Of a stretch of DNA of 64,000 nt, positions 24,705 through 58,343 are shown piece by piece. The stretch comes from Syntrophales bacterium (GTDB lineage: Bacteria; Desulfobacterota; Syntrophia; Syntrophales; UBA2210). Below the pieces are notes generated by a model. It saw only the letters and a program-made list of their open reading frames with translations, had not been told where the DNA came from and did no database searches. Position 1 is the stretch's first letter. The number at the start of each line of letters is the position of its first letter. Location of the stretch: positions 1,075 through 65,074 of the forward strand of contig JALNXD010000001.1 in assembly GCA_023230565.1 (NCBI GenBank), read 5' to 3'. The position numbers were made by a program, and so were the translations under genes.

Positions 24705-24716
24705 ACGGAGGCACCG

Positions 24717-29308: not shown

Positions 29309-29318
29309 ACTTTCCAGT

Positions 29319-30416: not shown

Positions 30417-30418
30417 TT

Positions 30419-41602: not shown

Positions 41603-41733
41603 ACCCTTCCCTCCTTTCACTATACGTGCACCTTCATCATTTTTTCCCTTTGTCCATATTGGACTCCAGGGCTCTTAAACAACAAAGACGGTATCGGAGA
41701 CGAATACCGCAGAACCAGCCTGGTTCGGCGTAT

Positions 41734-43074: not shown

Positions 43075-44432
43075 TTTACAACCCCTCTGCCGTAATTAAA
43101 AATAGCATCTTTATCAAGATCGTAATAAATCGGCGGTTTCAAACCGGGTTTATCGTCATAGGTTCCTATGACTTTTTTCTTCTGGAGATCGTTTAAATCC
43201 TGCTCTGAGAGACCAAGGATTTTTTTCAGGATGAACCTGTTATGATATCCGAGCGGGCGCGCAAGCCATTTTGTACGTCCCGGGGTCTTGCTCAACCGCG
43301 CAGACGGTCCGGCAAGCGCAAGTTCCCCGTACATCTCATCTTTGAATAGAATGACACTTCCTCTTTCCCTTCTCCATTGATCGTAGCAGATTTGTTTATC
43401 GTCCATCACTTCGGCAGCGGCAAATCCCTTTTCCTGAGCTAAATTAACAATTTCGTCACAATCCATGGACGAAATCCAGTCAGCAACGATTTTTCTTAAA
43501 TCCGCAGCATTCTCCGGTTTAAGAGCTTCCATATAATCAGAAAATCGAGCATCCGACAACAGCTCTTCTTTTCCCATCGCTTTGCAAAGACCTTCAAAAT
43601 GTTTTTTCGTAGCACAGGCCAATCCGAGAAATTTTTCATCTTTTGTCTTAAACATCGAAGCCGCCATCATTGAGGGGTCTGTATGACCCGTCCTTCCAAG
43701 GCTTTCTCCTGTGAGACTTTGAAATGTAAAATGAGGAAGCACACGCATCATCGAATCGGTCTGAGACAGATCGAGATATTGGCCTTTGCCGGTTTCATTT
43801 TTATAGTAAAGTGCCATGAGCAGTACCAATGCTCCCAAATTTCCGGGAACAAAATCTCCCAGATAATCAGGAAGCTTGAAATATTTATCGGTTCCATCAA
43901 AACCATTGAGACTCAGAACTCCGCTTGCCGCCTGTGCAAGAAGATCCCAGCCCGGGAAATATCTCATCGGTCCGTACTGCCCGTATGTCGAGCAGCTGAG
44001 ATAAATTATTTCAGGATTTACTTCACTTATTTTTGAATAGCCTACCCCCCATGCCTCCGCTGTTCCCGGTGCAAAATTTTCAAGCACAATATCGGATACT
44101 TCCGCAAGGCGATAAATAAGATCTTTTGCCTCAGCCCGTTTTAAATCAACTGAGACGAAATATTTGTTTTGCGTAACAAAATGCCAAATTGGGTTCGAAT
44201 GCTTCCAGTATCTTCCCCAGTACGTTGCAGGCCGCCAGAGATCTCCGTAAAAAGGAAGTTCCAGCTTTATGACCTCGGCGCCGTAATTTGCAAGAACTCT
44301 CGATGCCGTAGGCCCGAAGATTACGTGAGTGAAATCGAGAACTCTAATCCCTTTTAGAACTTCAGGTTTCTCATTTACCTTTGACGGGTCGAACAGCTGT
44401 TCCATATACGAAAAATAATCTTGCATAATCAT
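43071..44432 (-). CDS. Family III CoA-transferase (CaiB/BaiF type), subunit 1
   Basis: LKGIRVLDFTHVIFGPTASRVLANYGAEVIKLELPFYGDLWR and GWDLLAQAASGV (catalytic Asp region). 453 aa. The start overlaps the ATPase gene's stop by 4 nt. Confidence 0.85.
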   Translation of the reverse strand: MIMQDYFSYMEQLFDPSKVNEKPEVLKGIRVLDFTHVIFGPTASRVLANYGAEVIKLELPFYGDLWRPATYWGRYWKHSNPIWHFVTQNKYFVSVDLKRAEAKDLIYRLAEVSDIVLENFAPGTAEAWGVGYSKISEVNPEIIYLSCSTYGQYGPMRYFPGWDLLAQAASGVLSLNGFDGTDKYFKLPDYLGDFVPGNLGALVLLMALYYKNETGKGQYLDLSQTDSMMRVLPHFTFQSLTGESLGRTGHTDPSMMAASMFKTKDEKFLGLACATKKHFEGLCKAMGKEELLSDARFSDYMEALKPENAADLRKIVADWISSMDCDEIVNLAQEKGFAAAEVMDDKQICYDQWRRERGSVILFKDEMYGELALAGPSARLSKTPGRTKWLARPLGYHNRFILKKILGLSEQDLNDLQKKKVIGTYDDKPGLKPPIYYDLDKDAIFNYGRGVVK

Positions 44433-45133
44433 CTCCCCAGGTATGCCTTCTTCACCAGATCACTCTTCATGAGGCCTTCGGATTTTCCCTCCATTATAAT
44501 TTTACCGTCCTGAATCACATATCCTCTGTCGGCAAGCTGGAGGGCTCTTAGAGCGTTTTGTTCCGGGAGAAGAATTGTAATGCCTTTTTCACGGAGCGTT
44601 TCCAGTGATTCGAAAAGGCTATCTACGATCACCGGCGCAAGTCCAACCGAAGGCTCATCAACCATAATGAATCGGGGATGCGACATGAGTCCGCGCCCGA
44701 TATTGAGCATCTGCTGTTCTCCACCTGATAATAATCGCGCCTGCTGGTTCGATCTCATTTTCAGAATAGGAAACAGATCCATCACCCATTCAGCGGAATC
44801 GTTTCTTTCTTTCCAGGATTGACCTGCATATGCGCCCAGATAGAGATTTTCTTTCACTGTCAAATATGGAAATACTCTATGCCCTTCGGGTATGTGAATC
44901 ACTCCTTCTTCGACAATTTTATGCGGTGGCAATCCCGTAATATCTTTTCCCTGAAAAAGTACTGCTCCCGATGTAGGCTTCATTATTCCTTGCACAGCAT
45001 TCAAAATTGTGCTTTTACCGGCCCCGTTGGACCCGAGGAGAGTCACTATTTCATCAGGATAGACATTAAAACTGACTTCATGCAGTACGGAAAGTGTTCC
45101 ATATGATGCACTCAGATTTTTTACTTCAAGCAT
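44429..45133 (-). CDS. ABC transporter ATP-binding protein, LivF type
   Basis: Walker A GSNGAGKST, signature LSGGEQQML, Walker B IMVDEPS. 234 aa. Confidence 0.9.
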   Translation of the reverse strand: MLEVKNLSASYGTLSVLHEVSFNVYPDEIVTLLGSNGAGKSTILNAVQGIMKPTSGAVLFQGKDITGLPPHKIVEEGVIHIPEGHRVFPYLTVKENLYLGAYAGQSWKERNDSAEWVMDLFPILKMRSNQQARLLSGGEQQMLNIGRGLMSHPRFIMVDEPSVGLAPVIVDSLFESLETLREKGITILLPEQNALRALQLADRGYVIQDGKIIMEGKSEGLMKSDLVKKAYLGR

Positions 45134-45872
45134 AATCCCTCCACCCCTTGCCTAAATACGCCTCAATTACCCTGTCGTTATTCACGACCTCATCGGGAGT
45201 TCCATCTGCAATTAATTGACCGTATAAAATAGCGATAATACGCTCAGCCGCTTCTACGAGCACCGCCATGACATGTTCGATCCAGAACACTGTAAGACCG
45301 AACTGCTCTTTCGCCCGGACGATCATATCAACTGCTTTTGTTGCTTCTCCCGGATTGAGTCCCGCCATAACTTCATCGATAAAGAGCAGCTTCGGAGTCG
45401 TGGCAAGTGCCCGGGCCAGTTCAAGCATCCTTAATTCATAAAATGTAAGATCTCTCGCAAGAATATTCCTTTTACTGAACAGTCCTACGAATTCCAGGTA
45501 GTGAGTCGCTTCCCCCGCAGCATCCTCAAAGCTTTGATTTACCCTCTTTTTTCCACACAATACCGCTACTATAACACTCATGAGTGCCGTCAGTTCGAGA
45601 AAAGGCCTCGGAATCTGGTATGTGCGCGCAAGTCCGAGACGGGCCCGCTCGTAAGGCTTTTTTCTTGTAATATCGATATCTTGCATGACAATCTTACCAG
45701 AATCTGCCGTAAGATATCCGCTCATCACGTTGACCATCGTCGATTTTCCGGCACCATTTGGACCTATAAACCCCAGTGTTTCCCCTTCTCTTATTTTAAA
45801 ACTTACATTATCAACCGCCGTCAGCCCGCCGAATTTCTTGGTTACGTTAGTTACGGTCAGAATATCAGCCAT
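45126..45872 (-). CDS. ABC transporter ATP-binding protein, LivG type
   Basis: Walker A GPNGAGKST, Walker B LLFIDEVMAGL, and the LivG-type C-terminal extension (VIEAYLG). Confidence 0.9.
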   Translation of the reverse strand: MADILTVTNVTKKFGGLTAVDNVSFKIREGETLGFIGPNGAGKSTMVNVMSGYLTADSGKIVMQDIDITRKKPYERARLGLARTYQIPRPFLELTALMSVIVAVLCGKKRVNQSFEDAAGEATHYLEFVGLFSKRNILARDLTFYELRMLELARALATTPKLLFIDEVMAGLNPGEATKAVDMIVRAKEQFGLTVFWIEHVMAVLVEAAERIIAILYGQLIADGTPDEVVNNDRVIEAYLGKGWRDYA

Positions 45873-45878
45873 CAGATT

Positions 45879-46925
45879 TTACCTCCTCACGTGAATTGTC
45901 GGCATATATTCCCGGTAATGACGTCTGCGATAAAGGCCGAAAAGTCCTTCTCCCCTTGGAAGGGCAAAAAGAAGTATCAAAAGTATTATCGGGAATGCAA
46001 CGGGCTGAAATTGACCCATCGTCCTTATGAGAATCATCTCAAGGAAGGCCACGAAATATCCGCCCACGACACATCCGAATACCTGTGCGCGGCCTCCTAC
46101 CATAAAAACCAAAAGAATTTTCAGCATGTATGTCATAGGAAGATAGGTTATACCGGCAAACGTTCCGAAATAATGCGCCAAAAACCATCCTACTATGCCT
46201 ATCATGCCCGAGGCGCATACGAAGGTAATGATTTTGGTTTTTGCGATATTTACCCCGAGACCATGGGCTACATCTTCGTCATCGTTGACTGTCGCCATGA
46301 TCAAACCGTATCGCGATTTCAGAACCTTATTCGTAATTAAAAGATAAAGAAGCATAATTCCTGCCGAAATGTAAGCAGCGGAAAGGAAATTCAGTTTTGC
46401 ATTCTCGAACTGAACCAGAAGCTCGATACCGAAAAGACCCACATCACCCTTAAAGATCCCGGTATAGATAAAGGTCACTTCGAGAAAAACAAGCGGAAGG
46501 AGCAAGGTCAGAAGCACATAATAAAGACCCCGAGCCATAATAACCAGCGGGCTGAAAATCACAGCTGCAAAAAGTGATAAAATAATTGCAAAAGGCAGTG
46601 TGGCAATTGGACCCCATCCGAGGTGAATGCTCAAAAGCGCCGCTGTATAACCTCCTATACCTACATAGAAGTTTGGGCCGAAATTGATCCTCCCGGTACC
46701 GACGGTCATAAGAGAAAGCGGTATCGCAATTGCCGCATAAATATTTGCCGCCACCATTGTATTGATAAGACCGGGACTCAAAAAATACGCAATAAGGGGA
46801 AAGAGAAGCAATCCTATAGTCCAGTACAGGGTGTTTCTCCAGTATCGCGGTTCAATCATCCAGTCCCATTTCTTCCCTCCGGCTCTTATGACAATGCGGT
46901 CTCTTTTTATCTCGACGTCTACCAT
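45879..46925 (-). CDS. ABC transporter permease, LivM type
   Basis: Polytopic membrane protein of the branched-chain-amino-acid-type permease family (GRINFGPNFYVGIGGYTAALL). Overlaps the upstream permease gene by 7 nt. Confidence 0.85.
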   Translation of the reverse strand: MVDVEIKRDRIVIRAGGKKWDWMIEPRYWRNTLYWTIGLLLFPLIAYFLSPGLINTMVAANIYAAIAIPLSLMTVGTGRINFGPNFYVGIGGYTAALLSIHLGWGPIATLPFAIILSLFAAVIFSPLVIMARGLYYVLLTLLLPLVFLEVTFIYTGIFKGDVGLFGIELLVQFENAKLNFLSAAYISAGIMLLYLLITNKVLKSRYGLIMATVNDDEDVAHGLGVNIAKTKIITFVCASGMIGIVGWFLAHYFGTFAGITYLPMTYMLKILLVFMVGGRAQVFGCVVGGYFVAFLEMILIRTMGQFQPVAFPIILLILLFALPRGEGLFGLYRRRHYREYMPTIHVRR

Positions 46926-47803
46926 AATGATTCACTCCTTGCGATTCCCTGGGGTCTTATCACTAAAATTACCATGACCAGTATCAGGGCCGATAGATTC
47001 ATGAACCTGGGTTCGCCTACTACAAAACACATAAATGCATGAGTAATTCCAATCATGAAACTCGCAATGATAGTACCTTTGATATTTCCAAGTCCTCCCA
47101 GAACGGCAATCAAAATTGCTATTATCATATATTGCCATCCCATTCCCGGCTCAACCGTCCAGACAGGAACGACAAGAAGCATGCCGACAATGACCGGAAT
47201 AAGCACCAGCATCATCGTAAGCGTATAAAGCTTTTCCACATTAATGCCAATAATCCTTGAACTCGGGATATCCTGAGAAAGGGCTCTTACCGCCAGACCG
47301 GATTTTGTTTTAATGAAAAAAAGAGCAAATAAGCCGGTCATTACAAGGGCAACAAGAGACCCAATTATCAATTGTTTGGGAATGACTGCAGGACCGATCT
47401 CCCAGATCCCCGAAAGAAGCGTGGTCTGAAGATAGACCCCTTCCTGTATTGGATACCGCCATGAAGCGGCCTGCTCGACAATAAGGGCAACAAGAAGAAG
47501 AGCCGTCAGAAGCGTCATCTCATCATCCCAGTATCGCCGTATCATGAACGTATAGATGAGGTAAGATACGATGAATTGTACAATTACCATCCCGATTATT
47601 GAAGGAATCAGGCTCAAGCCGAATTCTCTCATAAAAAACCATGTTCCGTAGACAGTGAGAGGAAACAGGTATGCATACCCGAGATGAAAAATCCTCAAGA
47701 CACCGCAGATAAGAGAAAATCCAAGCGCAACAAGCAGGTAAATTGCACCCATTACAAATCCGAAAATCAGAATAAACAAGACAGTGTCAACCATTAAGCC
47801 CAA
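46919..47803 (-). CDS. ABC transporter permease, LivH type
   Basis: Polytopic membrane protein (GAIYLLVALGFSLICGVLRIFHLGYAY). First gene of the transporter operon. Confidence 0.85.
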   Translation of the reverse strand: MGLMVDTVLFILIFGFVMGAIYLLVALGFSLICGVLRIFHLGYAYLFPLTVYGTWFFMREFGLSLIPSIIGMVIVQFIVSYLIYTFMIRRYWDDEMTLLTALLLVALIVEQAASWRYPIQEGVYLQTTLLSGIWEIGPAVIPKQLIIGSLVALVMTGLFALFFIKTKSGLAVRALSQDIPSSRIIGINVEKLYTLTMMLVLIPVIVGMLLVVPVWTVEPGMGWQYMIIAILIAVLGGLGNIKGTIIASFMIGITHAFMCFVVGEPRFMNLSALILVMVILVIRPQGIARSESLW

Positions 47804-48209: not shown

Positions 48210-48866
48210 TTATGTTTCCAGCGAAGTCAAGCCTTCCCGGATCGCATACTTGACCAGTTCCGATATGCTATGGATATTAAGCTTCTCCATGATATTGCGC
48301 CGGTGTGTCTCTACCGTCTTGACACTAATGTTAAGGTGGTAGGCGATCTTTTTTGTACTCATCCCCTCTGCGAGAATCTGGAGTATCTCCCGCTCGCGCG
48401 GTGTAAGATTCGTGAATACCGATGATTCGCTTCCTGGCGATTTACCGATATAACGGTTCACTACTATCCCGGCAATCGTAGGGCTGAGATAGATTTGATT
48501 CGACATAACTGAGCGGATCGCTCGCACCAGTTCCTCGAATGCACAATCTTTCAGCAAATATCCCGATGCACCCGCTTCAAGCATACCTGAAACGAATCGC
48601 CTGTCCGAATACATTGAAAGTGCAATAACTTTTACTTTCGGATTCTCACGAATAATCACTCGCGTCGCATCTATTCCGTTCATATCGGGCATTGCGATAT
48701 CCATAATGATTACATCCGGCGATAATTCATGCGCCAGGCGCACTGCGGAACGGCCATCCTCGGCCTCCGCAACTACTTCCATTCCGGGTTCGCTTCCGAT
48801 GAGCGTCCGCAGGCCATCCCGCACTATCTTATGATCTTCAGCCAATAATATTTTTGCATTACTCAT
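48210..48866 (-). CDS. Two-component response regulator, NarL/FixJ (LuxR-type HTH) family
   Basis: Receiver domain (ILLAEDHKIVRDGL...VIIMDIAMPDMNGI) plus LuxR HTH (LTPREREILQILAEGMSTKKIAYHLNISVKTVETHRRNI). Confidence 0.9.
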   Translation of the reverse strand: MSNAKILLAEDHKIVRDGLRTLIGSEPGMEVVAEAEDGRSAVRLAHELSPDVIIMDIAMPDMNGIDATRVIIRENPKVKVIALSMYSDRRFVSGMLEAGASGYLLKDCAFEELVRAIRSVMSNQIYLSPTIAGIVVNRYIGKSPGSESSVFTNLTPREREILQILAEGMSTKKIAYHLNISVKTVETHRRNIMEKLNIHSISELVKYAIREGLTSLET

Positions 48867-51109
48867 CTAACCTTCTCCTTATACTCACGACGCCCTGGAC
48901 GAGAGTACATTATCATCCTTGCCCTCGTCCCGTTTCCGGGCGACGATTCTATATTAAATTGCCCTCCCAGATAGCTTAAACGCTCTTTAATACTGAACAA
49001 GCCGAAACCCTTCGTCCAGTCTGCCGGAGTTTTTATCTTCCGGACATCAAAGCCTGCGCCATCATCTTCAACGCCGACTTCCACACTTTTTCCGTTTTTT
49101 TTCATCCATACCAATACATGCGTCGCATTGGCATGTTTCGTAATATTAACAAGTAGTTCCTGTACGCATCTGAAAAGGACAAAGGCTCTATCCTTTGTAA
49201 GGATTTCCTTGCTTGTCCCTTTTTTATTGAAGACTATCTCGAGACCGTATTTCTCCTGATGTTGTTCTGTGAGCCATTCCAGAGCTGCTTCAAGCCCCAG
49301 GATATAAAGTACCGGGGGACTTAAATCAAATGTAAGCGATCGCGTATCTGAAATCAGCTGGTCTAAGATATGAACAATTTCTTCCAGAGATTCCGAATAT
49401 TCTGTTGAAGCCGCGTCTTTCTGAAGGGCTTCCAGTTTCATCTTGGCTACGGCCATAGTCTGGCCGATCCGGTCGTGCAACTCAGTCGCAAGCTGCTGGC
49501 GCTCCCGTTCCTCGGTGCGTGTTAATTCGGAAGATAAGTACCGCAGCTTTTCGTAATTTTCAGAAAGTTTCTGTTCCGCCTCCTTCGTCTCTGTAACATC
49601 CTGCCCGATGAGAAGCAGTCCGACTAAGTCGCCGTTGCTGTCGCGAAGTGTCTTGTTTGACCAGCTTACCAGGCGTTTCGAACCGTTGCGGGCTATAATG
49701 GTATTCACCTGTTTTGCCTGCTTGTCTCTCAGAGCGTCTCCGAAACTTTTGATGGTTGCAGACCATTCTTCTCTGGGAATGAAATTTTTCAACCAATCTT
49801 TTCCTCTCATCTCCTCAAGCGCATATCCGACAAGCTCTTCCGTGTAAGGATTATACCGCACGATCAGTCCCTGAGTGTCCAGAACAAGAACAACAGCCTG
49901 AGCCGTCTCGATTAAACTCTCGGCAAAATCCCGCTCACGGACCAGCGCACGTTCCGCCTGGCGCCGTTCTGTTATATCTTCATATACCGCAACCGCTTTC
50001 CTGCTTCTCGTGTTTGTACCGAGTTTCGATGCCGTAAAGGAACATAAAATTTCTCTGCCGTCACGACATTGGCAGTGCATCTCGTCAATGCAGATTTTTC
50101 TTTTTCTACGCTGATCGTAAAGAGCCTTGCCGGTTTGCTCATACTCGGAGTCACTTCCATATAATATACGGCTGTTTTTTCCTATCAATTCCTCAGGTTT
50201 CCAGCCGAAAACCTGTTGTGCGGCATTATTGGCAAAAATGATCCTCCTGTTTTCCAACCCTATAACTGCATGGGGAATAGTCTCGAGGATAGATGATTCC
50301 AGTGCTTCGATCTCTTCCAGCTTTTCCCTGGCTTCCCGAAGTTCAGTCACATCCATTGAATTGCCGAGAATTGCGGGTCTTCCCTCATAATAAATAGGTG
50401 ACACGACTCCCATCATCCGGCGTATCCGCCCATCTTTAGTGATGATTCTGTACTCATACGGCGAAGTGACTTCGCCTCTGAGCATTTTCCCCGCATGCTC
50501 TCGAACTTTCTTTCGATCCCGTGGGTGGACCATCACCATTCCGTTTTGTCCTATGACCTCACTTCTCCTGTATCCTGCATATGCTTCCACCATTGAGTTT
50601 ACAAAGCGGATTTTTCCATCTTGAACAATATAGACGCCTGCCTGCATCTTATCTGTCAGAATGCGGTAGAGTTCTTCCGCCCTTTTTCTTTCGGTGATGT
50701 CCCTGAATGACGTTATACGGATCGTTTTACCTTCGAAGGCTACATTTTTACCTTGAACTTCCATAGGAAATGTAGATCCATCTTTTCTTAACGCAAGCAC
50801 TTCATATGGCTTTTCAAATCCTTCCTTTACTTGTGAACGTACAATGCTTCGATATTCCGGAGCAATAAGGTTAATCACATTCATGCTCTTGAGTTCATCG
50901 GGTGAATATCCTGTTATATCTGACAGCACATTATTGGCATCCAGAAGGCACCCTTCGGCATGAATGCAGATCCCTTCGAAAGAAGGAAAATGAAATCGAT
51001 TGAATACATTCTTTCGGCCCAGCATTTTCGTGAGTGCGCCATCAATTCCCCCATCTGACTTTGTATCGGTTTGAACCTCTAAATCAGCTTTCGCTGCCTT
51101 ACGGGTCAT
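48863..51109 (-). CDS. Cytoplasmic multi-PAS sensor histidine kinase (HisKA_3 / NarX-type transmitter)
   Basis: Several PAS/PAC repeats (each ending ...DITERKRAEE / DVTELREAREKLE / DITERRQAERAL / DVTETKEAEQKL). H-box ELHDRIGQ and HATPase_c (EDDGAGF...GFGLFSIKERL...GNGT). I see no hydrophobic TM segment. Confidence 0.9.
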   Translation of the reverse strand: MTRKAAKADLEVQTDTKSDGGIDGALTKMLGRKNVFNRFHFPSFEGICIHAEGCLLDANNVLSDITGYSPDELKSMNVINLIAPEYRSIVRSQVKEGFEKPYEVLALRKDGSTFPMEVQGKNVAFEGKTIRITSFRDITERKRAEELYRILTDKMQAGVYIVQDGKIRFVNSMVEAYAGYRRSEVIGQNGMVMVHPRDRKKVREHAGKMLRGEVTSPYEYRIITKDGRIRRMMGVVSPIYYEGRPAILGNSMDVTELREAREKLEEIEALESSILETIPHAVIGLENRRIIFANNAAQQVFGWKPEELIGKNSRILYGSDSEYEQTGKALYDQRRKRKICIDEMHCQCRDGREILCSFTASKLGTNTRSRKAVAVYEDITERRQAERALVRERDFAESLIETAQAVVLVLDTQGLIVRYNPYTEELVGYALEEMRGKDWLKNFIPREEWSATIKSFGDALRDKQAKQVNTIIARNGSKRLVSWSNKTLRDSNGDLVGLLLIGQDVTETKEAEQKLSENYEKLRYLSSELTRTEERERQQLATELHDRIGQTMAVAKMKLEALQKDAASTEYSESLEEIVHILDQLISDTRSLTFDLSPPVLYILGLEAALEWLTEQHQEKYGLEIVFNKKGTSKEILTKDRAFVLFRCVQELLVNITKHANATHVLVWMKKNGKSVEVGVEDDGAGFDVRKIKTPADWTKGFGLFSIKERLSYLGGQFNIESSPGNGTRARMIMYSRPGRREYKEKVR

Positions 51110-51260: not shown

Positions 51261-52469
51261 TTAAACTCCTGGAAGCCCTACAATTCCGACGAAAATAGCA
51301 CACCCGTCGGGGCTTCCTCCCAAATTGTGCGTAAGCCCGAGTTTGGGGTTGGCAAGCTGTCTTGAAGGAAAGCCCGGGTTGAGCAGTTCATCCGCCCTCC
51401 CCTGAAGCTGCAAATACATTTCATACAACATGCGCAATCCGCTTGCCCCTATTGGATGCCCGAAACACTTTAACCCTCCGTCAAGTTGTACCGGCAATCC
51501 TCCGTCAAGATCAAAAAAGCCATTTTCGATATCGTCTCTGACCTTTCCACGGGGACTGAATCTGAGGTCTTCCATCGTAACGGCTTCAGTGATGGAAAAA
51601 CAATCATGAACTTCTGCCATGCTGATTTCCTCACGCGGGTTTTTAATACCCGCTTCCTTATATGCAGCTTCCGCAGCTCTTACTGTCGCTTCAACGTGCA
51701 GGAAATCATAGTTGGTATTGAAATTGCCATCTCGGGGCGCCATTGAAATTTGCAGCGCCTTTACATACACAGGGTCTTTCCTCATGCTCTGAGCTATTTC
51801 AGGTGTAGTAATAATCGCCGCTGCCGCTCCATCGCTTACTCCGCAACAATCAAATAAACCGAGCGGCCAGGCAACCATAGGAGCATTGAGAATCGTATCC
51901 ATACTGACATCTTTCTGGAAATGAGCGTTTTTGTTACGCATACCATTTTGATGGCTTTTCCATGACACTCGCCCTATCATGTGTTTGCCTTCTTCGAAAC
52001 TAAGCCCGTATTTTGAAAAATATGTAGTTGCAAGCATGGCGAACTGCCTCGGAGGCGTGCTTTCTGCCTCCATGGCATGCGAAGGTCCAGGTGCACCACC
52101 ATCACCCAAACCGCTGATTCCGCTATCTTTGAATTTGTCGACCCCGACGGCAAGTACCATATCGTAAATGCCGGCAGCCACGGCATAACAAGCATTCCTG
52201 AATGCATCAGAGGCAGTTGCGCAGGCATTCTCAACCCTTGTAACTGGAATGTATTGAAGCCTCAGAGGCTCGGAGAGAACCATTCCTGTCATGCCGGTTG
52301 CTGTTCCCAGCCAGGCCGCCTGAATATCTTTGGTTTCGATTCCGGCATCTTCGTAAGCCTGATAGACCGCCTCTACTATCATGTCGGCGGCACTGACATC
52401 CCAGCGTTCACCGAATCTTGTGCAACCCATTCCCACAATGGCTACCCTGTCCTTAATACTTCCTGGCAT
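51261..52469 (-). CDS. Thiolase, SCP-x/archaeal type (thiolase-domain protein)
   Basis: VAIVGMGCTRFGE, active-site Cys in VENACATASDA, and C-terminal GHPIGASG and NLGGS motifs. 402 aa. Confidence 0.85.
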   Translation of the reverse strand: MPGSIKDRVAIVGMGCTRFGERWDVSAADMIVEAVYQAYEDAGIETKDIQAAWLGTATGMTGMVLSEPLRLQYIPVTRVENACATASDAFRNACYAVAAGIYDMVLAVGVDKFKDSGISGLGDGGAPGPSHAMEAESTPPRQFAMLATTYFSKYGLSFEEGKHMIGRVSWKSHQNGMRNKNAHFQKDVSMDTILNAPMVAWPLGLFDCCGVSDGAAAAIITTPEIAQSMRKDPVYVKALQISMAPRDGNFNTNYDFLHVEATVRAAEAAYKEAGIKNPREEISMAEVHDCFSITEAVTMEDLRFSPRGKVRDDIENGFFDLDGGLPVQLDGGLKCFGHPIGASGLRMLYEMYLQLQGRADELLNPGFPSRQLANPKLGLTHNLGGSPDGCAIFVGIVGLPGV

Positions 52470-52488
52470 ATTCGGACCTCCTTTGCTG

Positions 52489-53925
52489 TTAATCTCTCAC
52501 CGGCTTACACTTCCAGAAATAGGTATGTGTGCCTTGAGTATATTGCAATTTTCTGAAAGTCATTTCCACTTTCATCCCAACACTGCATTCATCTGGCTCA
52601 CGGTCTACCATATTAAACTGGCCGCGGCCTCCCCCTTCAAAATCAATGACTGCCGCTGTTGTAGGCGGATCGGTGCCGGCCGCAAGAAAATCATGACTGA
52701 AGCTGGCTACCTGCCCCCTTCTGTTTGCAAAGCGGTATGGTTCAAATTCATCTTTTCGGCCACAATTAAGACAAATTCGCGCTCGAGTAGAGGAGGAACT
52801 GAGGTAAAGCTGAGGAGTGCCGCAATTTTTGCACTTCACCCCGTAAAGCGGCAGTGCCGTAGAATGCTCTCTCCATTGTGCCGACATTGAAGCGGCTCCC
52901 GCCGGGGGGCGTGGCGGAGGTGCTATGTCCACCATATCGCGCCATCTCAGATATCTTCCATAATTATCTAATGTTTTTTTGATCTTGAGGTGTCTTTTTA
53001 TTCCTCTTCTACCTCTGATGTTATCGATTTCTTCATTTACCCTGAATATTATGGCATCACTCCCATTGCCCCAACTTACCAGTAAAATCCGATCACCCGG
53101 CTTTGCATCCTCAAGCGCGCCTATCAGAATCATCAAAGGCTGTGCCGTACCGGTATTCCCCACATCTGCGAGCAATGGATCCTGTATTTGCTCCTTGCTG
53201 AATCCCATTTTTGCGGCCAGCGCCGCATGGCTCCTCAAATTTGCTCCGCAAAGACATAACCTGGAAATGTCTTCTTTTTTGAGTCCGCATTTCTTCATCG
53301 CCCCGGCAGCAGCCTCGACAGGTAATCTCATATAACCCTCTTCTCTGCCGAATCGATCTTCCCAATGCCGCACATAAGTATCCTCGTGCGATCTCCAGTA
53401 GTCCGCCAGGTCTTCAGACAAGCAGTGATATGCTTCTATTTCAACAGCAACATTATTACTGCCAAAGAGCAACGCACCACTTCCATCTCCAAAGTCCTGC
53501 TCATCCTCACCAGCCGCTCCTGCAAGCCGCATGTCGGCAGCAGTAACAAGAACCGATTTGAGTGTACCTGCCTCTACAGAATCAAGAGCAGCCATAATAG
53601 CATTTGTTCCGGCTCTCAAACAGTTTGCAAAGTCTGTATTCCTGGCCGCTTGGGGAAGATCGAGCGCTGTTGCCACAATCGTTGAATTTTGCCGCTCTTT
53701 GTAGGGCGCACAGGTTGTTGCAAGGAAAAGCGCTTCGACTGTTCTAGGATCCACGTCTCTCAAACAGTCTAATCCTGCGGCAACAGACATCGTGATAGGG
53801 TCTTCATCAAAACCGGCCACTGCCTTCTCCCCGCGTCCCCCTTTCGCATCCCACATTTTTCCGATTGCAGCCCGGGGCAGTCTGTAGTATGGGATATACG
53901 CTCCGTATGATATTATTCCTGCCAT
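52489..53925 (-). CDS. HMG-CoA-synthase-like condensing enzyme fused to a C-terminal DUF35 (zinc-ribbon + OB-fold) domain
   Basis: N-terminal ~340 aa are HMGCS-like (IISYGAYIPYYRL, Cys in DFANCLRAGTNA, VGNTGTAQ). The C-terminal ~125 aa hold the zinc ribbon CKNCG...CLNCG and an OB-fold segment (VASFSHD...VIDFEGGGRGQFNMVD...VGMKVEMTF). Confidence 0.8.
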   Translation of the reverse strand: MAGIISYGAYIPYYRLPRAAIGKMWDAKGGRGEKAVAGFDEDPITMSVAAGLDCLRDVDPRTVEALFLATTCAPYKERQNSTIVATALDLPQAARNTDFANCLRAGTNAIMAALDSVEAGTLKSVLVTAADMRLAGAAGEDEQDFGDGSGALLFGSNNVAVEIEAYHCLSEDLADYWRSHEDTYVRHWEDRFGREEGYMRLPVEAAAGAMKKCGLKKEDISRLCLCGANLRSHAALAAKMGFSKEQIQDPLLADVGNTGTAQPLMILIGALEDAKPGDRILLVSWGNGSDAIIFRVNEEIDNIRGRRGIKRHLKIKKTLDNYGRYLRWRDMVDIAPPPRPPAGAASMSAQWREHSTALPLYGVKCKNCGTPQLYLSSSSTRARICLNCGRKDEFEPYRFANRRGQVASFSHDFLAAGTDPPTTAAVIDFEGGGRGQFNMVDREPDECSVGMKVEMTFRKLQYTQGTHTYFWKCKPVRD

Positions 53926-54068
53926 TTTTCCTCCTTTTCCATTAAGAAAATTGTTGGTATACCAGATTGAACATACATCTTCGGACTATTTTTACTTTGC
54001 ATTGCTTCATCCGCCAACGACCGGCCGACTGCATATTCGAGGGAATTATTTCTTTCAAACAGGCGAAA

Positions 54069-54097
54069 TATATAACAAGAACATTATAAAGTGTCAA
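54069..54097 (-). promoter_or_regulatory. Putative sigma70 promoter for the HMGCS-DUF35/thiolase operon
   Basis: Minus-strand TTGACA (54092-54097), a 17-nt spacer, then TATATA (54069-54074), about 140 nt upstream of the ATG at 53925. Confidence 0.45.
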
Positions 54098-54518
54098 CAT
54101 TCTTTGGTTGTTGTGTTGCTGAGTGCCATGACCTGCCGGGCGCATATGTCTGAGCTGCCGCGCGCGAGTGTGCCGGGAACGCTTCACGAGATGCTGCATG
54201 GTCGGAAAACAGATCTGAACGGGCAATCTCATGCCCGTAATTGGAAAGTCAATACGCTCTCGCATCACTTACTTAGAAGCTCCAGAGGCAAGGCGCGCGA
54301 ATCACGGAGAATGAGGCATATGTCGAGGTACTCCGCAGTTACGAAGGATTATGCATAATGCAGCATCGGACTTTTACAAAAGCTTTAACGTTAATGGGCA
54401 AAGGTATTGCCTTTCAATCCCTGGCGTATTTGTGCTTTCTTAATGAGAGTCTCTTTTTAAATTGATCTTATTATGATATAGAATATTCCATCACCAATTT
54501 GAGAGGAGGTGAATCAGC

Positions 54519-55304
54519 ATGAACTCACAAGATATAGAAGCGAAAATTGATGCCGCAGCAGCTGCAATTGTTGCTTCAAAACGTATTGTAGTCTTTACGG
54601 GAGCCGGGGTCAGCACGGAATCCGGAATACCTGATTTCAGAAGTCCCGGGGGAATTTGGACAAAATTCGATCCTGAAGATTTTACGATCGAGAAATTTCT
54701 TACCAGCAGAGATTCAAGAAAAAAACAATGGGAAGTTCTCCTCGAAGGGGGTCTTTTTGGAGCCGTGGCGCCGAATCCTGCCCATTATGCCATTGCACAG
54801 CTCGAAAAACTTGGAAAACTTGACTGTATAATAACGCAGAATATAGATAACCTTCATCAGAAAGCGGGAAATTCGCCCGATATTGTATTTGAACTTCATG
54901 GTAACATGCAGTGGGTCATCTGTATGCATTGCGGCAAAAGATATTCAACAGAAACAATCATTGAAAAGTTGCAATCAGGAATCGAGATTCCTGATTGCGA
55001 TCACTGCCTGGGCATATTAAAACCTGATGTAGTTTTCTTCGGTGAATCGCTCCCCTTTTTAATATTGAATACCGCAATTGAGCGTTCAAAAAAAGCGGAT
55101 CTTTTCATATCCATCGGTTCTTCCCTTGTGGTGACTCCGGCAGCTTACATGCCTTCATACGCACTTGAATCGGGAGCAAAATTAATAATCGTCAATATTG
55201 GCGAGACCTCTCTCGATAACAGAGCGCATATTCTCATCAATGGAAAAGCGGGAGACGTAATGACAAGAATATTGGAAAAGGTAAGTACATATCTGTGTGT
55301 CTGA
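54519..55304 (+). CDS. cobB: NAD-dependent protein deacylase, Sir2/CobB family
   Basis: GAGVSTESGIPDFRSPGGIW, QNIDNLH, catalytic His in FELHGN, and the Zn ribbon CMHCG...CDHC. RBS GAGAGGAGG upstream. Confidence 0.9.
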   Translation: MNSQDIEAKIDAAAAAIVASKRIVVFTGAGVSTESGIPDFRSPGGIWTKFDPEDFTIEKFLTSRDSRKKQWEVLLEGGLFGAVAPNPAHYAIAQLEKLGKLDCIITQNIDNLHQKAGNSPDIVFELHGNMQWVICMHCGKRYSTETIIEKLQSGIEIPDCDHCLGILKPDVVFFGESLPFLILNTAIERSKKADLFISIGSSLVVTPAAYMPSYALESGAKLIIVNIGETSLDNRAHILINGKAGDVMTRILEKVSTYLCV

Positions 55305-56086
55305 TTGTAATTGCATATAAAGTCAATGCGAATTATCCGCTCGTCATTGCCGCGAACCGGGACGAATTCTACAATCGTCCATCTGAAGCGGCATCATTCT
55401 GGCCGGATGCCCCTAATGTGCTTGCCGGACGTGATCTGAAAGGGGGCGGCACGTGGCTTGGGCTGACATCCGAAGGTCGCGTAGCGGCCATTACAAATTT
55501 CAGGAACCCGACCCTCGCCAAATCAGGAGCCCCGTCAAGAGGGCTTCTTGTAAGTAATTATCTCCGCGGCTCATCAAAAGCTGAAGAATATTTGAAAGAA
55601 ATCCAGCATGAAGCTGCTGCCTACAATGGTTTCAATCTAATCGCCGGCGATCTCTCCCGGCTTTTTTGCTTTTCAAATATAAATAATTCTATTGTACGCA
55701 TCACCCCGGGGATTCACGGATTGAGCAACCACCTTCTCGATACGCCCTGGCCGAAAGTGACACGCGCAAAAAAGCTTTTAATGGATGCTGTCACCGGCAT
55801 CGAAAAGCCATCGCCTCAGCTGATACTGGAAATCCTCTCCGATACGCTGCATCCTCCCGATGAAGAGCTTCCGGATTCAGGGATAGGTCTCGACTGGGAA
55901 AGAATGCTCTCACCTCTTTTCATATCAAGTTCCTGCTATGGAACGTGTTCGTCGACAGTAATTCTTGTCGACATGAATATGAAAGCGACATTTATGGAAA
56001 GGGTTTCGGAAACCGGATATACAAAACCCGGTACAAAGACTTTTTCTTTCGACCTCTCCGCTGATCGCATTTCGAAGGATCTTTAA
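55295..56086 (+). CDS. NRDE-family protein (DUF833; TANGO2 homologue)
   Basis: N-terminal MC (GTG start at 55295, MCLIVIAYK) and the eponymous AANRDEF motif. Overlaps the sirtuin gene by 10 nt. Confidence 0.8.
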   Translation: MCLIVIAYKVNANYPLVIAANRDEFYNRPSEAASFWPDAPNVLAGRDLKGGGTWLGLTSEGRVAAITNFRNPTLAKSGAPSRGLLVSNYLRGSSKAEEYLKEIQHEAAAYNGFNLIAGDLSRLFCFSNINNSIVRITPGIHGLSNHLLDTPWPKVTRAKKLLMDAVTGIEKPSPQLILEILSDTLHPPDEELPDSGIGLDWERMLSPLFISSSCYGTCSSTVILVDMNMKATFMERVSETGYTKPGTKTFSFDLSADRISKDL

Positions 56087-56087
56087 A

Positions 56088-56515
56088 ATGACGCCAGAAA
56101 GCAGGTATCCCACACAGCCGCAGGTAGGTGTGGGGGCAGTGGTTATCAAAGACGGCTCAATACTGCTTGTAAAAAGGGGCCGGTCTCCGGGCATAAATCT
56201 CTGGGCGATCCCGGGCGGACGGATTAATCTCGGAGAAACGCTTAAAAAAGCTGTAGAACGGGAAGTAGAGGAAGAAACAGGAGTGCTCATACGTGCAGGC
56301 GACCCGATCTATACATTTGATTTTATTGAGCGAGACAAAAAAACCGCATAGTGTTCCACTATGTAATAGTCGACTTCTACGGTCAGTACCTCAGTGGAGA
56401 TCCATGCGGGAATGATGATGCTCTTGAGGCAAAATGGATCAAGAAAGAACAGTTGAATAGCCTTGAAATCTCCCGTAATATGCTACACCTGCTTAAAATT
56501 ATTAATTTTTGTTAA
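56088..56515 (+). pseudogene. Nudix hydrolase interrupted by a frameshift in an A7 run (pseudogene, sequencing error or recoding site)
   Basis: The frame-3 ORF (56088-56351) has a complete Nudix box GGRINLGETLKKAVEREVEEETGV but stops at a TAG at 56349. The C-terminal half (VFHYVIVDFYGQYLSGDPCGNDDALEAKWIKKEQL...) continues in the -1 frame to the TAA at 56513-56515. One extra A in the run at 56337-56343 would give the contiguous sequence ...ERDKKNRIVFHYVIVDF... Confidence 0.7.
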
Positions 56516-56589: not shown

Positions 56590-57045
56590 TTACAGGCTAT
56601 AAATCTTTTTACCCGGCAAAATTACGAAACCATTTTCCTGCAGTGCGGCGATCGCCTCTTCCGTGCGGTCAAACCTGAATATAATAATGGCATTTTCCCC
56701 GCTTCTTTCAACGAAAGCGTAAGTATATTCTATATTAATACCTTTCCGGGAAAGAGTTTCAACGATACTGTGAAGTCCCCCTGGCCTATCAGGAATCTCG
56801 ACTGCTACCACGAATGAGCGACGAACAGTAAACCCTTCATCTTGAAGACTTTTTTCAGCCCGCTCCGTATCGTTGACGATAAGTCTCAAGATACCGAAAT
56901 CTGAAGTATCTGCAAGTGACAATGCACGGATATTGATATTAGCATTTTTAAGAACTCTCGTTACATACTCGAGCCCTCCCGGCTTATTTTCCAGAAATAT
57001 TGAAATTTGTTCTACTTTCATATCTTCCTCCCGGTCAATTTTCAA
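56590..57045 (-). CDS. ACT-domain protein (tandem ACT), partner of the aryl-CoA ligase
   Basis: Two ACT-like beta-alpha-beta-beta-alpha-beta units ([15 protein letters not shown]...; [12 protein letters not shown]...). The start overlaps the PaaK stop by 4 nt. Confidence 0.75.
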
Positions 57046-58343
57046 ATCCGGCGCTTGTCAATTACACGCTGGGCCTTCCCTTCAAAACGCTCCAGAGTTT
57101 TTGCTTCCACTAGTTTGACCGCCGCTGTCACACCAAGATAATCTTTGATATCTTTTGTAATGCGCCTTTCAATTTGCTGAAGTCCCCTTACCTGGTCCGA
57201 AAATATCTTCTCACTGACTTCCACCCTTATTTCAAGGGTATCAAGAGTGCCCTCTCTTTCTACAATAAGCTGATAATGCGGTTCCAGTCCTTCTATCCCC
57301 AAAAGAACGCTTTCAATCTGCGATGGAAAGACATTGACCCCCCGGATGATCAGCATATCATCACTCCTTCCAGAAACTCTTGCCATCCTTGTAAGAGTTC
57401 TCCCGCACCGGCACGGTGTCCTTACAAGCTTCGACAAATCGCGTGTACGATACCTGATCAACGGGAAGGCCTCTTTCGTAAGTGTGGTAAATACCAATTC
57501 CCCTATTTCACCATTTTTTACCGGTGATCCGGTAGCTGGATTTATTGCCTCTACAATAAAATGATCTTCGAATACATGAAGGCCGCTTCTGCCTTCTTTG
57601 CATTCTATTGCAACACCGGGACCGATAATTTCCGACAGACCGTAAATATCCAGAGCTGTTATACCTAAACGCTCCTCTATTTCTTCCCTCATCTGCTCAC
57701 TCCAGGGTTCCGCACCCAGTATGCCTACTCTGAGCCTGAGTGATTTCATATCCACACCCATCTCTTCCCCTTGCTCTGCCAGATAAAGTGCATAAGAAGG
57801 AGTGCAGCATATAGCCGTAGGGCCAAAGTCCTGTAATATCAGGATCTGTTTTTTCGTACTTCCGCCTGACATTGGAATAACACTCGCACCAAGTCTCTCC
57901 GCTCCATAATGAGCACCCAGTCCTCCTGTAAACAGTCCATACCCGTAAGCATTATGAATGATGTCGTTCCTGGTGAGACCTGAAGCGACAAAAGATCGAG
58001 CCATTAAAACCGACCACGTATCAATATCTCTTTTCGTATATCCGACAACGGTGGGTTTTCCTGTTGTGCCCGATGATGCATGAAGCCTTATAACATTTCC
58101 CATTGGAACAGCGAAAAGCCCGAAAGGGTAATTATCCTGCAGGTCCTTCTTTGTTGTGAATGGAAGACGCCTGATATCATCGAGTGTCTTTATATCATCC
58201 GGCGTAACGCCGGCTTCGTCAAAGGCATTCCGGTAAAACCCTACTGTATGATACACCCGTTCAGCGACCTGCTGAAGTCTCTTCAATTGAAGTGCTTCCA
58301 GTGCCTCCCGCGGTAATGTTTCAAACTCCTCATCAAAAATCAT
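57042..58343 (-). CDS. paaK: Phenylacetate-CoA ligase family (PaaK-type aryl/arylalkyl-CoA ligase)
   Basis: [21 protein letters not shown] (AMP-binding P-loop), [11 protein letters not shown], and C-terminal [11 protein letters not shown]. 433 aa. Confidence 0.85.

Follow-up and report, generated by a model that had tools for sequence, protein, structure and literature searches.

A pseudo-HMG-CoA synthase fused to DUF35 as the probable non-catalytic partner of an SCP2-type thiolase in a Syntrophales bacterium

A class of complexes in which an inactive HMGS fused to DUF35 accompanies an intact ACAT was published in January 2026 by Liao et al. in Nat Commun (PMC12960953). This "minimal" class comprises 1,001 of the 1,030 gene clusters mined in that study and includes PfACAT/HMGS-DUF35 of P. 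fluorescens, the member that was assayed. The P. fluorescens complex makes neither HMG-CoA nor acetoacetyl-CoA and cleaves acetoacetyl-CoA, an activity abolished by mutation of the His of the HDxF motif. The same study reports that replacing the E-C-H-N tetrad of the archaeal enzyme abolishes HMG-CoA formation, and that MucB is insoluble or inactive without its partners (PMC12960953). The fusion described here therefore belongs to an architecture that is already known and is not novel.

Three other groups of systems are relevant. The archaeal thiolase/HMGCS/DUF35 complex (PDB code 6ESQ) is built from three modules, all homologous to those described here and encoded by clustered genes, although its HMGCS and DUF35 are separate chains. 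The complexes PhlACB (PDB codes 5M3K and 5MG5), CsATase (9SKH) and MucABC (9VBO and 9VBT) follow the same thiolase-fold/DUF35/thiolase-fold plan, their only active site lying in the subunit that resembles a thiolase, and their dead HMGS-like subunit, PhlA or MucA, is the best structural and sequence match of the present protein. Their subunits are separate, however, and are encoded in secondary-metabolite clusters (type III PKS or NRPS-PKS), in contrast with the primary catabolic context described below. BbsAB benzoylsuccinyl-CoA thiolase (7PXP), IpfDE, Ltp2-ChsH2 and Sal-Shy consist of an SCP2-type thiolase-fold enzyme that needs a zinc-ribbon/OB-fold DUF35 partner and acts degradatively on CoA thioesters, features that the present pair would share, but they lack an HMGCS-like domain, and Ltp2 and Sal are aldolases rather than thiolases.

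The pair analysed here was found in a 64,000-nt stretch of a Syntrophales bacterium MAG (the window, to which all coordinates refer). Its features, with the evidence for each, are as follows.

52489..53925, minus strand: fusion gene, pseudo-HMGCS-DUF35, 478 aa, putative scaffold subunit (ORF and translation)
52927..53925, minus strand: HMGCS/PhlA-like thiolase-fold domain, residues 1-333 (profile match, Foldseek, catalytic columns)
52879..52926, minus strand: Pro/Ala-rich linker between the two modules, residues 334-349 (alignment ends, highest variability)
52492..52878, minus strand: DUF35 module, Cys4 zinc ribbon plus OB fold, residues 350-478 (Pfam OB_ChsH2_C)
52762-52833, minus strand: zinc-ribbon cysteines C365, C368, C385 and C388 (conserved in the family)
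52470..52488, minus strand: spacer of 19 nt with the thiolase RBS AAGGAGG (sequence read)
51261..52469, minus strand: SCP2-type thiolase gene, 402 aa, putative catalytic subunit (NCBIfam NF004810, invariant motifs)
53926..54518, no strand: intergenic region of 593 nt upstream of the fusion gene, presumed promoter region, common to a divergent Sir2 gene
48863-51109, minus strand: sensor kinase with four PAS domains and HisKA_3 (Pfam and NCBIfam)
48210-48866, minus strand: LuxR-type response regulator (Pfam and NCBIfam)
41734-44432: two family III CoA-transferase genes, about 7 kb off, past the two-component system and an ABC transporter

The fusion gene is preceded by the RBS GGAGG and ends with a stop codon at 52489-52491. 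Its product is 100% identical to a database protein annotated "OB-fold domain-containing protein [Syntrophales bacterium]" (P0001). An earlier note on this DNA had described a 478-aa ORF with an HMGCS-like body and a DUF35 module followed 19 nt downstream by a thiolase gene, and each of these elements was recovered at the positions listed. The note had also placed the operon next to CoA-transferases and a sensor kinase; the kinase does lie directly downstream, the kinase/regulator pair beginning 151 nt beyond the thiolase gene on the same strand, whereas the CoA-transferases are some 7 kb away. The two-component system adjoins the pair only in near-identical contigs and is absent from most related loci, one of which (L004) carries a loosely similar kinase/regulator pair. 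It is possibly a local regulator outside the conserved module. Within 53926..54518, no Rfam family was matched, promoter-like matches were not commoner than in shuffled sequence and repeats were short and at chance level; the flanking intergenic regions, scanned for Rfam families, promoters, terminators and repeats, likewise yielded nothing above background.

The identical gene with the same neighbours was present in three independent assemblies (ENA, Logan and JGI), homologs of similar length (about 478 aa) number more than 2,300, and at least 548 species-representative genomes encode a full-length relative. The fusion is thus not the joining of two ORFs by misassembly that the earlier note had entertained. 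Among 50%-identity cluster representatives, 3,351 matched at E ≤ 0.001 and 586 at E ≤ 1e-30. The fusion and its thiolase are present together in many uncultured anaerobes, and proteobacterial full-length members display 30-34% identity (E values of 1e-46 to 1e-71). Some loci also contain an extra stand-alone DUF35 gene. A 723-aa relative with ATP-grasp and molybdopterin-binding domains (P0154) was set aside as an apparent chimeric gene call.

Pairing with the thiolase is a conserved property of the family. The thiolase gene lies directly downstream of the scaffold gene in 65 of 80 genome loci, with similarly tight spacing, and most of the remaining loci are interrupted by contig ends or by one inserted gene. 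Divergence of the scaffold and of the thiolase co-vary (Spearman 0.53, p = 7e-6). From gene order and co-variation, the pairing is predicted to be obligate.

The structure of the fusion protein was modelled with AF2 from a 138-sequence alignment, resulting in a pLDDT of 95 and a pTM of 0.94; an alignment of 33 close homologs had given a pLDDT of 63. Residues 1-333, an HMGCS/FabH-like body, match Pfam ACP_syn_III_C and are spanned by the NCBIfam HMGCS models. Foldseek comparison of the AF2 model with archaeal HMGCS (6ET9_I) revealed a target-normalised TM score of 0.92 and an rmsd of 1.5 Å, TM scores for the N-terminal domain ranging from 0.87 to 0.92. The single-sequence match of the N-terminal half to archaeal HMGCS has an E value of 3e-29. 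With the family profile, E values are 1e-72 to 1e-70 for PhlA-type chains and 5e-66 for archaeal HMGCS, and PhlA is the best solved-structure match of this domain. The DUF35 module matches the DUF35 chain 6ESQ_E (8e-8 by single sequence, 3.6e-29 by profile) as well as PhlB, BbsA and ChsH2-DUF35, and its four zinc-ribbon cysteines are kept in at least 130 of 133 relatives. The alignment to archaeal HMGCS stops at residue 332 and the DUF35 alignment begins at residue 350, so that the two parts match separate chains of 6ESQ and 5M3K. The intervening linker is the most variable segment, with an identity of 31-50% against 45-67% in the flanking domains. Domain and HMM searches thus confirmed the two-domain architecture.

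The covalent joining of a DUF35 scaffold to an HMGCS-like subunit, proposed in the earlier note, is therefore real, but the HMGCS-like half lacks the catalytic triad and is not expected to be an enzyme. In 6ESQ_I numbering, which was used as the reference, the catalytic columns are Glu82, Cys114 and His238, part of the E-C-H-N tetrad, and the fusion protein presents Thr71, Leu103 and Cys226 at these positions. Cys102, which had been taken as the nucleophile within DFANCLRAGTNA, aligns with Ala113; the catalytic position is the next column and holds Leu103. This register is backed by the 1.5 Å superposition on 6ET9_I. The triad is missing from all 120 close homologs, where the three columns are T, L/I and mostly Y, with Leu at the nucleophile column in 119. 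The combination E-C-H was found in none of 133 diverse full-length relatives, and a live triad was likewise looked for, and not found, in tandem paralogs. Only the tetrad Asn is retained here, as Asn257, and this position is variable in the family (48 of 133). Since the Glu, Cys and His are replaced, the N-terminal half is predicted to be a PhlA-like pseudo-enzyme rather than a synthase, and neither HMG-CoA synthesis nor two-site channelling of the kind performed by the archaeal complex would be possible.

It could be argued that the N-terminal half remains an active HMG-CoA-synthase-like enzyme that uses C102 as the nucleophile and receives acetoacetyl-CoA channelled from the thiolase. The overall HMGCS fold, the retained Asn257 and the presence of C102 in 110 of 120 close homologs would fit such an enzyme, as would the name "hydroxymethylglutaryl-CoA synthase" that some databases give to relatives. 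However, C102 is off register by one residue, 111 of 133 diverse members have Ser in its column, and the catalytic Glu and His are missing everywhere in the family. When tested against the active archaeal-type HMG-CoA synthase class (NCBIfam NF003274/TIGR00748), HMGCS model scores were all below the curated cut-offs (225.9 against 244, 178.6 against 353.35 and 52.1 against 360.35). HMG-CoA is made neither by the archaeal enzyme once its tetrad has been replaced nor by the fused P. fluorescens protein (PMC12960953). In agreement with the earlier note, Pfam and domain annotation revealed no mevalonate-pathway gene among the window ORFs of at least 150 aa, and none was found among 116 genes flanking 65 related pairs, which places the module apart from mevalonate synthesis. 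An active synthase is thus very improbable and already close to refuted.

Loss of catalysis has not been accompanied by decay. Within the close clade the N-terminal domain is 62-66% identical across phyla, similar to the DUF35 half, and although predicted to be catalytically dead it appears to be under constraint. Cys224 is kept in 120 of 120 close homologs. With C102 and C224 conserved in this clade, a clade-specific function of the vestigial pocket is conceivable; the two cysteines beside it might have acquired a new redox-sensing or acyl-binding role.

The partner thiolase, in contrast, retains Cys83, the HDCF motif (His288-Asp-Cys-Phe291) and the His of the GHx motif (His338), all invariant in 66 of 66 partner thiolases, and by its motifs is predicted to be catalytically intact. 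It scores 575.8 against the "acetyl-CoA acetyltransferase" equivalog NF004810, above the cut-off of 403. Its match to archaeal ACAT (6ESQ_A and 7YVY) is 1e-55, compared with 3e-35 for BbsB and 1e-19 for PhlC. These features bear on whether the pair could be a Friedel-Crafts C-acyltransferase of the PhlACB/MucABC type that acetylates a small-molecule acceptor, a function suggested by the PhlA match and by the pseudo-HMGS state common to both systems. PhlC and MucB have lost the HDxF His that is kept here and belong to a class with a remodelled acceptor pocket, the thiolase is far nearer to archaeal ACAT than to PhlC, and Pfam annotation detected no PKS or NRPS gene in the whole window. Moreover, thiolase behaviour sets the fused P. 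fluorescens complex apart from the ATases (PMC12960953). A C-acyltransferase is consequently scarcely conceivable.

PfACAT/HMGS-DUF35 is among the systems closest to the present pair. In both, a single chain carries the HMGS-like and DUF35 modules, catalytic residues of the HMGS are missing (E, C and H here), the adjoining SCP2-type thiolase keeps the Cys, HDxF and GHx motifs, and PKS or NRPS neighbours are absent. The two differ in phylum and lifestyle, the present pair deriving from an anaerobic Syntrophales MAG, and in the tetrad Asn, which the present protein retains. Their kinship is judged by architecture; other proteobacterial members are about 30-34% identical to the present protein, and a value of about 30-35% is probable for the P. 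fluorescens homolog.

Taken together, these data favour a two-subunit thiolase holoenzyme in which the SCP2-type thiolase would be the sole catalyst and the 478-aa fusion its non-catalytic partner, acting in the thiolytic direction and probably on acetoacetyl-CoA. We assign this reading a probability of roughly 0.6. The fusion would represent an end-to-end joining of the separate archaeal HMG-CoA synthase and DUF35 subunits, with the synthase half dead. Loss of its catalytic residues makes a scaffold for the thiolase the most likely role of the HMGCS-like half. The solved structures of the archaeal, PhlACB and MucABC assemblies suggest three most likely functions of the fusion: clamping the thiolase dimer with the zinc ribbon and OB fold, maintaining the thiolase in a soluble and active state, and supplying part of the CoA-binding chamber at the interface. 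The physical complex, its substrate and its direction are likewise inferred. The substrate would be a short 3-ketoacyl-CoA, acetoacetyl-CoA being the most probable, and its cleavage to acetyl-CoA units would conclude C4 or beta-oxidation-type catabolism in this anaerobic Syntrophales bacterium. As the triad is lost throughout the family, there would be no second reaction for channelling, and since the unfavourable condensation would lack the pull of a second active site, the complex is most likely thiolytic. The suggestion in the earlier note that the module works on another acyl-CoA or in the cleavage direction gains plausibility from the fused P. fluorescens homolog, which only cleaves acetoacetyl-CoA (PMC12960953), and from the beta-oxidation-like contexts. 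Rosetta-stone fusions, in which the scaffold is joined to SDR or SCP2 domains, also count in favour of the holoenzyme. Any uncoupled thiolase would nevertheless be expected to give no condensation in vitro, so the P. fluorescens result does not prove the direction in vivo.

Genomic neighbourhoods were surveyed in two ways: neighbouring genes were clustered across 80 loci, and Pfam families were counted for the 116 immediate neighbours of 65 related pairs. The count yielded 87 Pfam families, revealing very heterogeneous neighbourhoods, and neither approach identified a conserved partner other than the thiolase. The neighbourhoods are nonetheless enriched in beta-oxidation and C4 genes, with ACAD, AtoDA-type CoA-transferase, ETF and SDR genes recurring across loci. 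Individual loci carry a 3-hydroxyacyl-CoA dehydrogenase with an HpaB/AbfD-family gene (L004), a hydantoinase A/B (acetone-carboxylase-like) with a CoA-transferase (L008), or an ADP-forming acyl-CoA synthetase (L092 and L094). Distant members in Rhodococcus, Azoarcus and Variovorax are surrounded by complete beta-oxidation-like operons. In the window itself no SDR, ACAD, hydratase or dehydrogenase gene adjoins the pair, which leaves the substrate assignment weak.

The same non-catalytic scaffold could serve a 3-oxoacyl-CoA that is bulkier than acetoacetyl-CoA or otherwise unusual, whether aromatic, alicyclic, branched or dicarboxylic, with the pseudo-HMGCS pocket or DUF35 helping to accommodate the substrate as in BbsAB or IpfDE-type systems. 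Distant members are encoded on catabolic megaplasmids, in operons that also specify a ring-hydroxylating dioxygenase, enoyl-CoA hydratases and SDRs. These operons point in this direction, as do the SCP2 lipid-binding domains fused to the scaffold in some members, and the several paralogous pairs in many genomes suggest substrate specialisation. Two ligase genes, one for a PaaK-like aryl-acid CoA ligase and one for a FadD-like enzyme, lie within 12 kb of the pair, as do both family III CoA-transferase genes and a Liv-type ABC importer, but none of the ligase or transferase genes is conserved with it. A BbsEF-like role of the two CoA-transferases was considered and rejected, as they match generic models only, below the cut-offs, and are not conserved with the pair. 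The closest relationship of the thiolase is to archaeal acetoacetyl-CoA thiolases rather than to BbsB, the acetyl-CoA acetyltransferase equivalog was passed, BbsA and BbsB models scored far below their cut-offs (20.6 against 250 and 133.8 against 750, respectively), the SDR, ACAD or hydratase neighbours expected of a bbs operon (BbsCD, BbsG, BbsH) are absent, and contexts in the close clade indicate C4 metabolism. A bulky substrate is thus unlikely, although not far-fetched.

The neighbourhoods also bear on the direction of the reaction. In Sulfolobus acidocaldarius, condensation is driven by a thiolase/DUF35 pair to which an SDR reductase and a MaoC dehydratase bind, an assembly described as a fatty-acid-synthase hub (bioRxiv 10.1101/2024.07.05.601840). 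By extension, the present scaffold might be a docking hub that recruits a ketoacyl-CoA reductase or dehydratase to pull acetoacetyl-CoA formation. The pair would then serve reverse beta-oxidation, CoA-dependent fatty-acid synthesis or the making of storage polymers, as proposed for the Sulfolobus KT/DUF35 complex. The thiolase/DUF35 assembly platform is common to both systems, and the SDR fused to the scaffold in two relatives (P0180 and P0258) offers a parallel. Placement of one pair inside a ribosomal-protein cluster (L096) suggests a housekeeping and possibly anabolic role. Syntrophs, furthermore, are known to run beta-oxidation reversibly. The Sulfolobus hub, however, is archaeal and biosynthetic, lacks an HMGCS-like module and has separately encoded partners; a reductase or dehydratase gene neither adjoins the pair in the window nor occurs consistently elsewhere, and the recurrent ACAD, ETF and AtoDA-type CoA-transferase neighbours are typically catabolic. 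The characterised fused homolog yielded no condensation product (PMC12960953). Operation of the pair as a condensation hub is therefore quite improbable.

Beyond the thiolytic holoenzyme favoured above, the SDR and SCP2 fusions, the extra stand-alone DUF35, the multiple paralogous pairs and the placement in a ribosomal-protein operon prompt a more tentative proposal. The pseudo-HMGCS-DUF35 protein may be an ancient and obligatory subunit, kept by selection, of a major bacterial and haloarchaeal thiolase class, serving as the docking hub of a CoA-dependent (reverse-)beta-oxidation metabolon, and not a leftover "evolutionary intermediate". We regard this as speculative and somewhat doubtful.

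Databases label the fused scaffold "HMG-CoA synthase", "OB-fold protein" or "FabH C-terminal domain protein". If its synthase half is recognised as dead, a false inference of the mevalonate pathway in metagenome-based metabolic models is avoided, and attention turns to a thiolase that would need a pseudo-enzyme partner. The pair is extremely common, including in many of the uncultured anaerobes that dominate subsurface carbon turnover.

The module studied here consists of two ORFs:

53925 to 52489, minus strand, fusion ORF of 478 codons with GGAGG 6 nt ahead of its start
52469 to 51261, minus strand, thiolase ORF of 402 codons, following the fusion ORF after a spacer of exactly 19 nt that holds AAGGAGG

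In the fusion protein, Pfam places ACP_syn_III_C at residues 211-289 and OB_ChsH2_C, the OB fold of DUF35, at residues 399-458; the product of the second ORF has both thiolase domains, N- and C-terminal. The fusion protein is 100% identical to the database entry ‘OB-fold domain-containing protein [Syntrophales bacterium]’. An assembly artefact can be ruled out because three data sets assembled independently (ENA, Logan and JGI) all contain the identical gene next to the same neighbours. The fusion of an HMGCS-like body to DUF35 described in the earlier note is thus genuine and most of the observation holds, but the catalytic claim at its centre proved to be wrong, as will be described below.

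A family profile of the fusion protein was compared with chains of solved structures, and single-sequence searches were also run. Profile positions 2-333 matched PhlA-type chains (9SKH_A, 1.4e-72; 5M3K_A, 1.6e-70), the archaeal HMGCS chain 6ESQ_I (4.6e-66) and MucA (9VBO_A, 3.9e-50), while positions 340-471 matched the DUF35 chain of the same archaeal complex (6ESQ_E, 3.6e-29), PhlB (5.5e-18) and ChsH2-DUF35 (3.5e-15). By these profile matches, each half has its homologs among the separate subunits of known complexes. The AlphaFold2 model (pLDDT 95, pTM 0.94, from a 138-sequence alignment) superposes on the archaeal HMGCS with a TM-score of 0.92 (normalised to target) and an rmsd of 1.5 Å, and on PhlA with a TM-score of 0.88. 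The alignment to archaeal HMGCS ends at residue 332 and that to DUF35 starts at residue 350, showing that two complete subunits are fused end to end. The Pro/Ala-rich linker of ~16 residues is the most variable segment, and the four zinc-ribbon cysteines are kept in at least 130 of 133 diverse full-length members.

The catalytic residues of HMGCS were located through a HMMER alignment to 6ESQ_I and two independent MAFFT alignments, a register that the 1.5 Å superposition of the model supports. The Cys in DFANCLRAGTNA (C102), previously proposed as the nucleophile, pairs with Ala113 of 6ESQ_I, and it is Leu103 that occupies the column of the nucleophile Cys114.

Residues of the fusion protein at the HMGCS tetrad columns (6ESQ_I numbering), with their occurrence in 120 close homologs
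Glu82: Thr71; T in 120/120
Cys114: Leu103; L in 119, I in 1
His238: Cys226; Y in 108, the remainder F, C, V or T
Asn270: Asn257, retained; N in 99, D in 18

The E-C-H combination occurs in 0 of the 133 diverse full-length members, of which 111 carry Ser in the C102 column and which vary in the Asn column; tandem paralogs beside some pairs are equally triad-less. Against NCBIfam HMGCS equivalogs the fusion protein scores 225.9 and 178.6, short of the curated cut-offs of 244 and 353, respectively. Replacing the tetrad of an archaeal enzyme abolished HMG-CoA formation (PMC12960953). The synthase half is predicted to be catalytically dead. Its conservation is similar to that of the DUF35 half (62-66% in the close clade), which points to constraint and not to decay. 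At the sequence level, the readings of the N-terminal half as an active synthase and of the complex as a Friedel-Crafts acylase are effectively excluded.

The partner thiolase passes the NCBIfam equivalog NF004810, ‘acetyl-CoA acetyltransferase’ (575.8, cut-off 403), and is closest to the archaeal acetoacetyl-CoA thiolases 7YVY and 6ESQ_A (1e-55), with BbsB at 3e-35 and PhlC at 1e-19. Cys83, His288-Asp-Cys-Phe291 and His338 are invariant in 66/66 partner thiolases, and the enzyme is predicted to be intact. The thiolase gene directly follows the fusion gene in 65 of 80 genome loci; 3 others stop at a contig edge, 7 have one intervening or overlapping gene, and in 5 (Acidobacteriota, Sumerlaeota) no thiolase gene was found within the locus. 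Divergence of scaffold and thiolase co-varies (Spearman 0.53, p = 7e-6). The thiolase is obligately paired with the fusion protein. In 9/65 loci, mostly from Desulfatiglandales and Deltaproteobacteria, the fusion gene is immediately preceded by a stand-alone DUF35 gene of ~143 aa (e.g. L050:3385-3816, L046:5268-5699 and L063:5204-5635), giving two DUF35 units per thiolase gene there.

The fusion protein belongs to a large and old family. More than 2,300 homologs were recovered in a word-indexed search; the top 120, from Syntrophales, Chloroflexota, Dehalococcoidia and Thermodesulfobacteriota, are all ~478 aa long and 60-78% identical, with the two Pfam domains in common. When 1.84 billion cluster representatives were scanned exhaustively with HMMER, there were 3,351 matches at E <= 0.001 and 586 at E <= 1e-30, the top 150 being nearly all full-length fused proteins with identity down to 32%. 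Relatives are encoded at no fewer than 548 loci in contigs representing one genome per species, including two copies in cultured Desulfotruncus alcoholivorax. Full-length relatives also reside on megaplasmids of Rhodococcus, Variovorax, Azoarcus, Sphingobium, Mycobacterium and several haloarchaea. The haloarchaeal plasmid matches (H45-H59; e.g. Natrinema thermotolerans CP031304.1 628690-630108) are full-length fused proteins of ~22-27% identity, annotated ‘zinc ribbon domain-containing protein’ and adjoining thiolase genes; the fused architecture is therefore not confined to Bacteria. Three database homologs, P0180 (911 aa), P0258 (800 aa) and P0202 (722 aa), are extended C-terminally, either by an SDR, alone or together with SCP2, or by a pair of SCP2 domains. 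Such Rosetta-stone extensions point to links with 3-hydroxyacyl-CoA dehydrogenase and lipid-carrier functions. The SDR-fused members, and analogy with the Sulfolobus KT/DUF35 fatty-acid synthase complex (bioRxiv 10.1101/2024.07.05.601840), make it conceivable that the complex is a docking hub working in the condensation direction.

The mining study of Liao et al. (Nat Commun 2026, PMC12960953) covered 1,030 bacterial clusters in which HMGS, ACAT and DUF35 genes co-localise; 1,001 of these are without PKS or NRPS genes. Their P. fluorescens example combines a fused HMGS-DUF35 lacking the E-C-H-N tetrad with an ACAT retaining Cys, HDxF and GHx. With acetyl-CoA as substrate it made neither HMG-CoA nor acetoacetyl-CoA; it cleaved acetoacetyl-CoA, an activity lost in the HDxF His mutant, and was termed an ‘evolutionary intermediate’ with no defined pathway (PMC12960953). 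Judged by the published description, the window pair has all the sequence-level features of this class, which was described in 2026, and is a new member of it from an anaerobic lineage.

Flanks of related pairs vary greatly, with 87 Pfam families among 116 genes, but are enriched for acyl-CoA metabolism, with recurrent acyl-CoA dehydrogenase, AtoDA-type CoA-transferase, 3-hydroxyacyl-CoA dehydrogenase, ETF, SDR, AMP-ligase and extra thiolase or DUF35 genes. Close relatives (64-78% identical) adjoin 3-hydroxyacyl-CoA dehydrogenase and HpaB/AbfD-family genes, hydantoinase A/B and CoA-transferase genes, or ADP-forming acyl-CoA synthetase genes, and distant members in Rhodococcus DK17, Azoarcus KH32C and Variovorax SRS16 lie inside full beta-oxidation-like operons. 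Some genomic contexts suggest bulkier acyl-CoAs as substrates. One 67% identical pair (locus L096:8001-14776), accompanied by two further thiolase genes and another fusion paralog without the triad, is inserted in a ribosomal-protein cluster between the L11/L1 and L10 genes, downstream of EF-Tu, SecE and NusG, suggesting housekeeping-level expression in that organism.

The window surroundings comprise:

12369-14423, minus strand, anaerobic ribonucleotide reductase NrdD, consistent with a strictly anaerobic host and fitting the assignment of the identical database protein to Syntrophales
16055-17287, minus strand, 410-aa ORF, no Pfam match at E <= 1e-5
17461-17536, minus strand, tRNA-Ala(CGC)
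21827-22531, plus strand, 234-aa ORF, no Pfam match at E <= 1e-5
22671-23321, TetR regulator, with the RND efflux systems downstream
23505-33532, plus strand, two RND efflux systems in succession, the first with MFP, AcrB-like pump and outer-membrane factor, the second with MFP and AcrB-like pump
40241-47803, minus strand, Liv-type ABC importer (two permeases, two ATPases), two tandem family III CoA-transferases, then a periplasmic binding protein
downstream of the pair, same strand, PAS-rich HisKA_3 kinase and LuxR-type regulator
54519-56351, plus strand, compact three-gene run divergent from the fusion gene (Sir2/CobB-type NAD-dependent protein deacylase, TANGO2-family, small NUDIX)
56590-58343, minus strand, PaaK-like phenylacetate-CoA ligase homolog, then a 151-aa ACT-domain-pair protein
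upstream of the pair, after the ACT-pair and PaaK-like genes, FadD-like ligase

The 40241-47803 segment looks like an uptake-and-activation cassette for an organic acid; its CoA-transferases matched only generic models, below cut-offs. A protein deacylase beside acyl-CoA enzymes is suggestive, the adjacency occurring only in near-identical contigs, where the pairing of the PaaK-like ligase (619.7 against TIGR02155, just under the cut-off of 646) with the ACT-pair protein also recurs. Outside near-identical contigs, the kinase/regulator, importer, CoA-transferase, binding-protein, Sir2-TANGO2-NUDIX, ACT-pair and ligase genes are not conserved alongside the pair. The window is free of mevalonate, PKS and NRPS genes, supporting the earlier suspicion of non-mevalonate metabolism.

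Taken together, the analysis shows a conserved two-gene module with its predicted active site in the thiolase only. We infer that the fusion protein would bind the thiolase in the manner of the archaeal, PhlACB and MucABC assemblies, stabilising it and supplying part of the CoA-binding chamber, and that the complex would cleave a short 3-ketoacyl-CoA thiolytically, with acetoacetyl-CoA the most probable substrate. Thiolysis is proposed because no second reaction pulls the condensation forward, in support of the cleavage direction previously raised as a possibility; substrate and direction are the main uncertainties of this explanation. The catalytically dead half corrects ‘HMG-CoA synthase’ annotations in metagenomes, and the main point is a very widespread thiolase with an unexplained need for a pseudo-enzyme partner.
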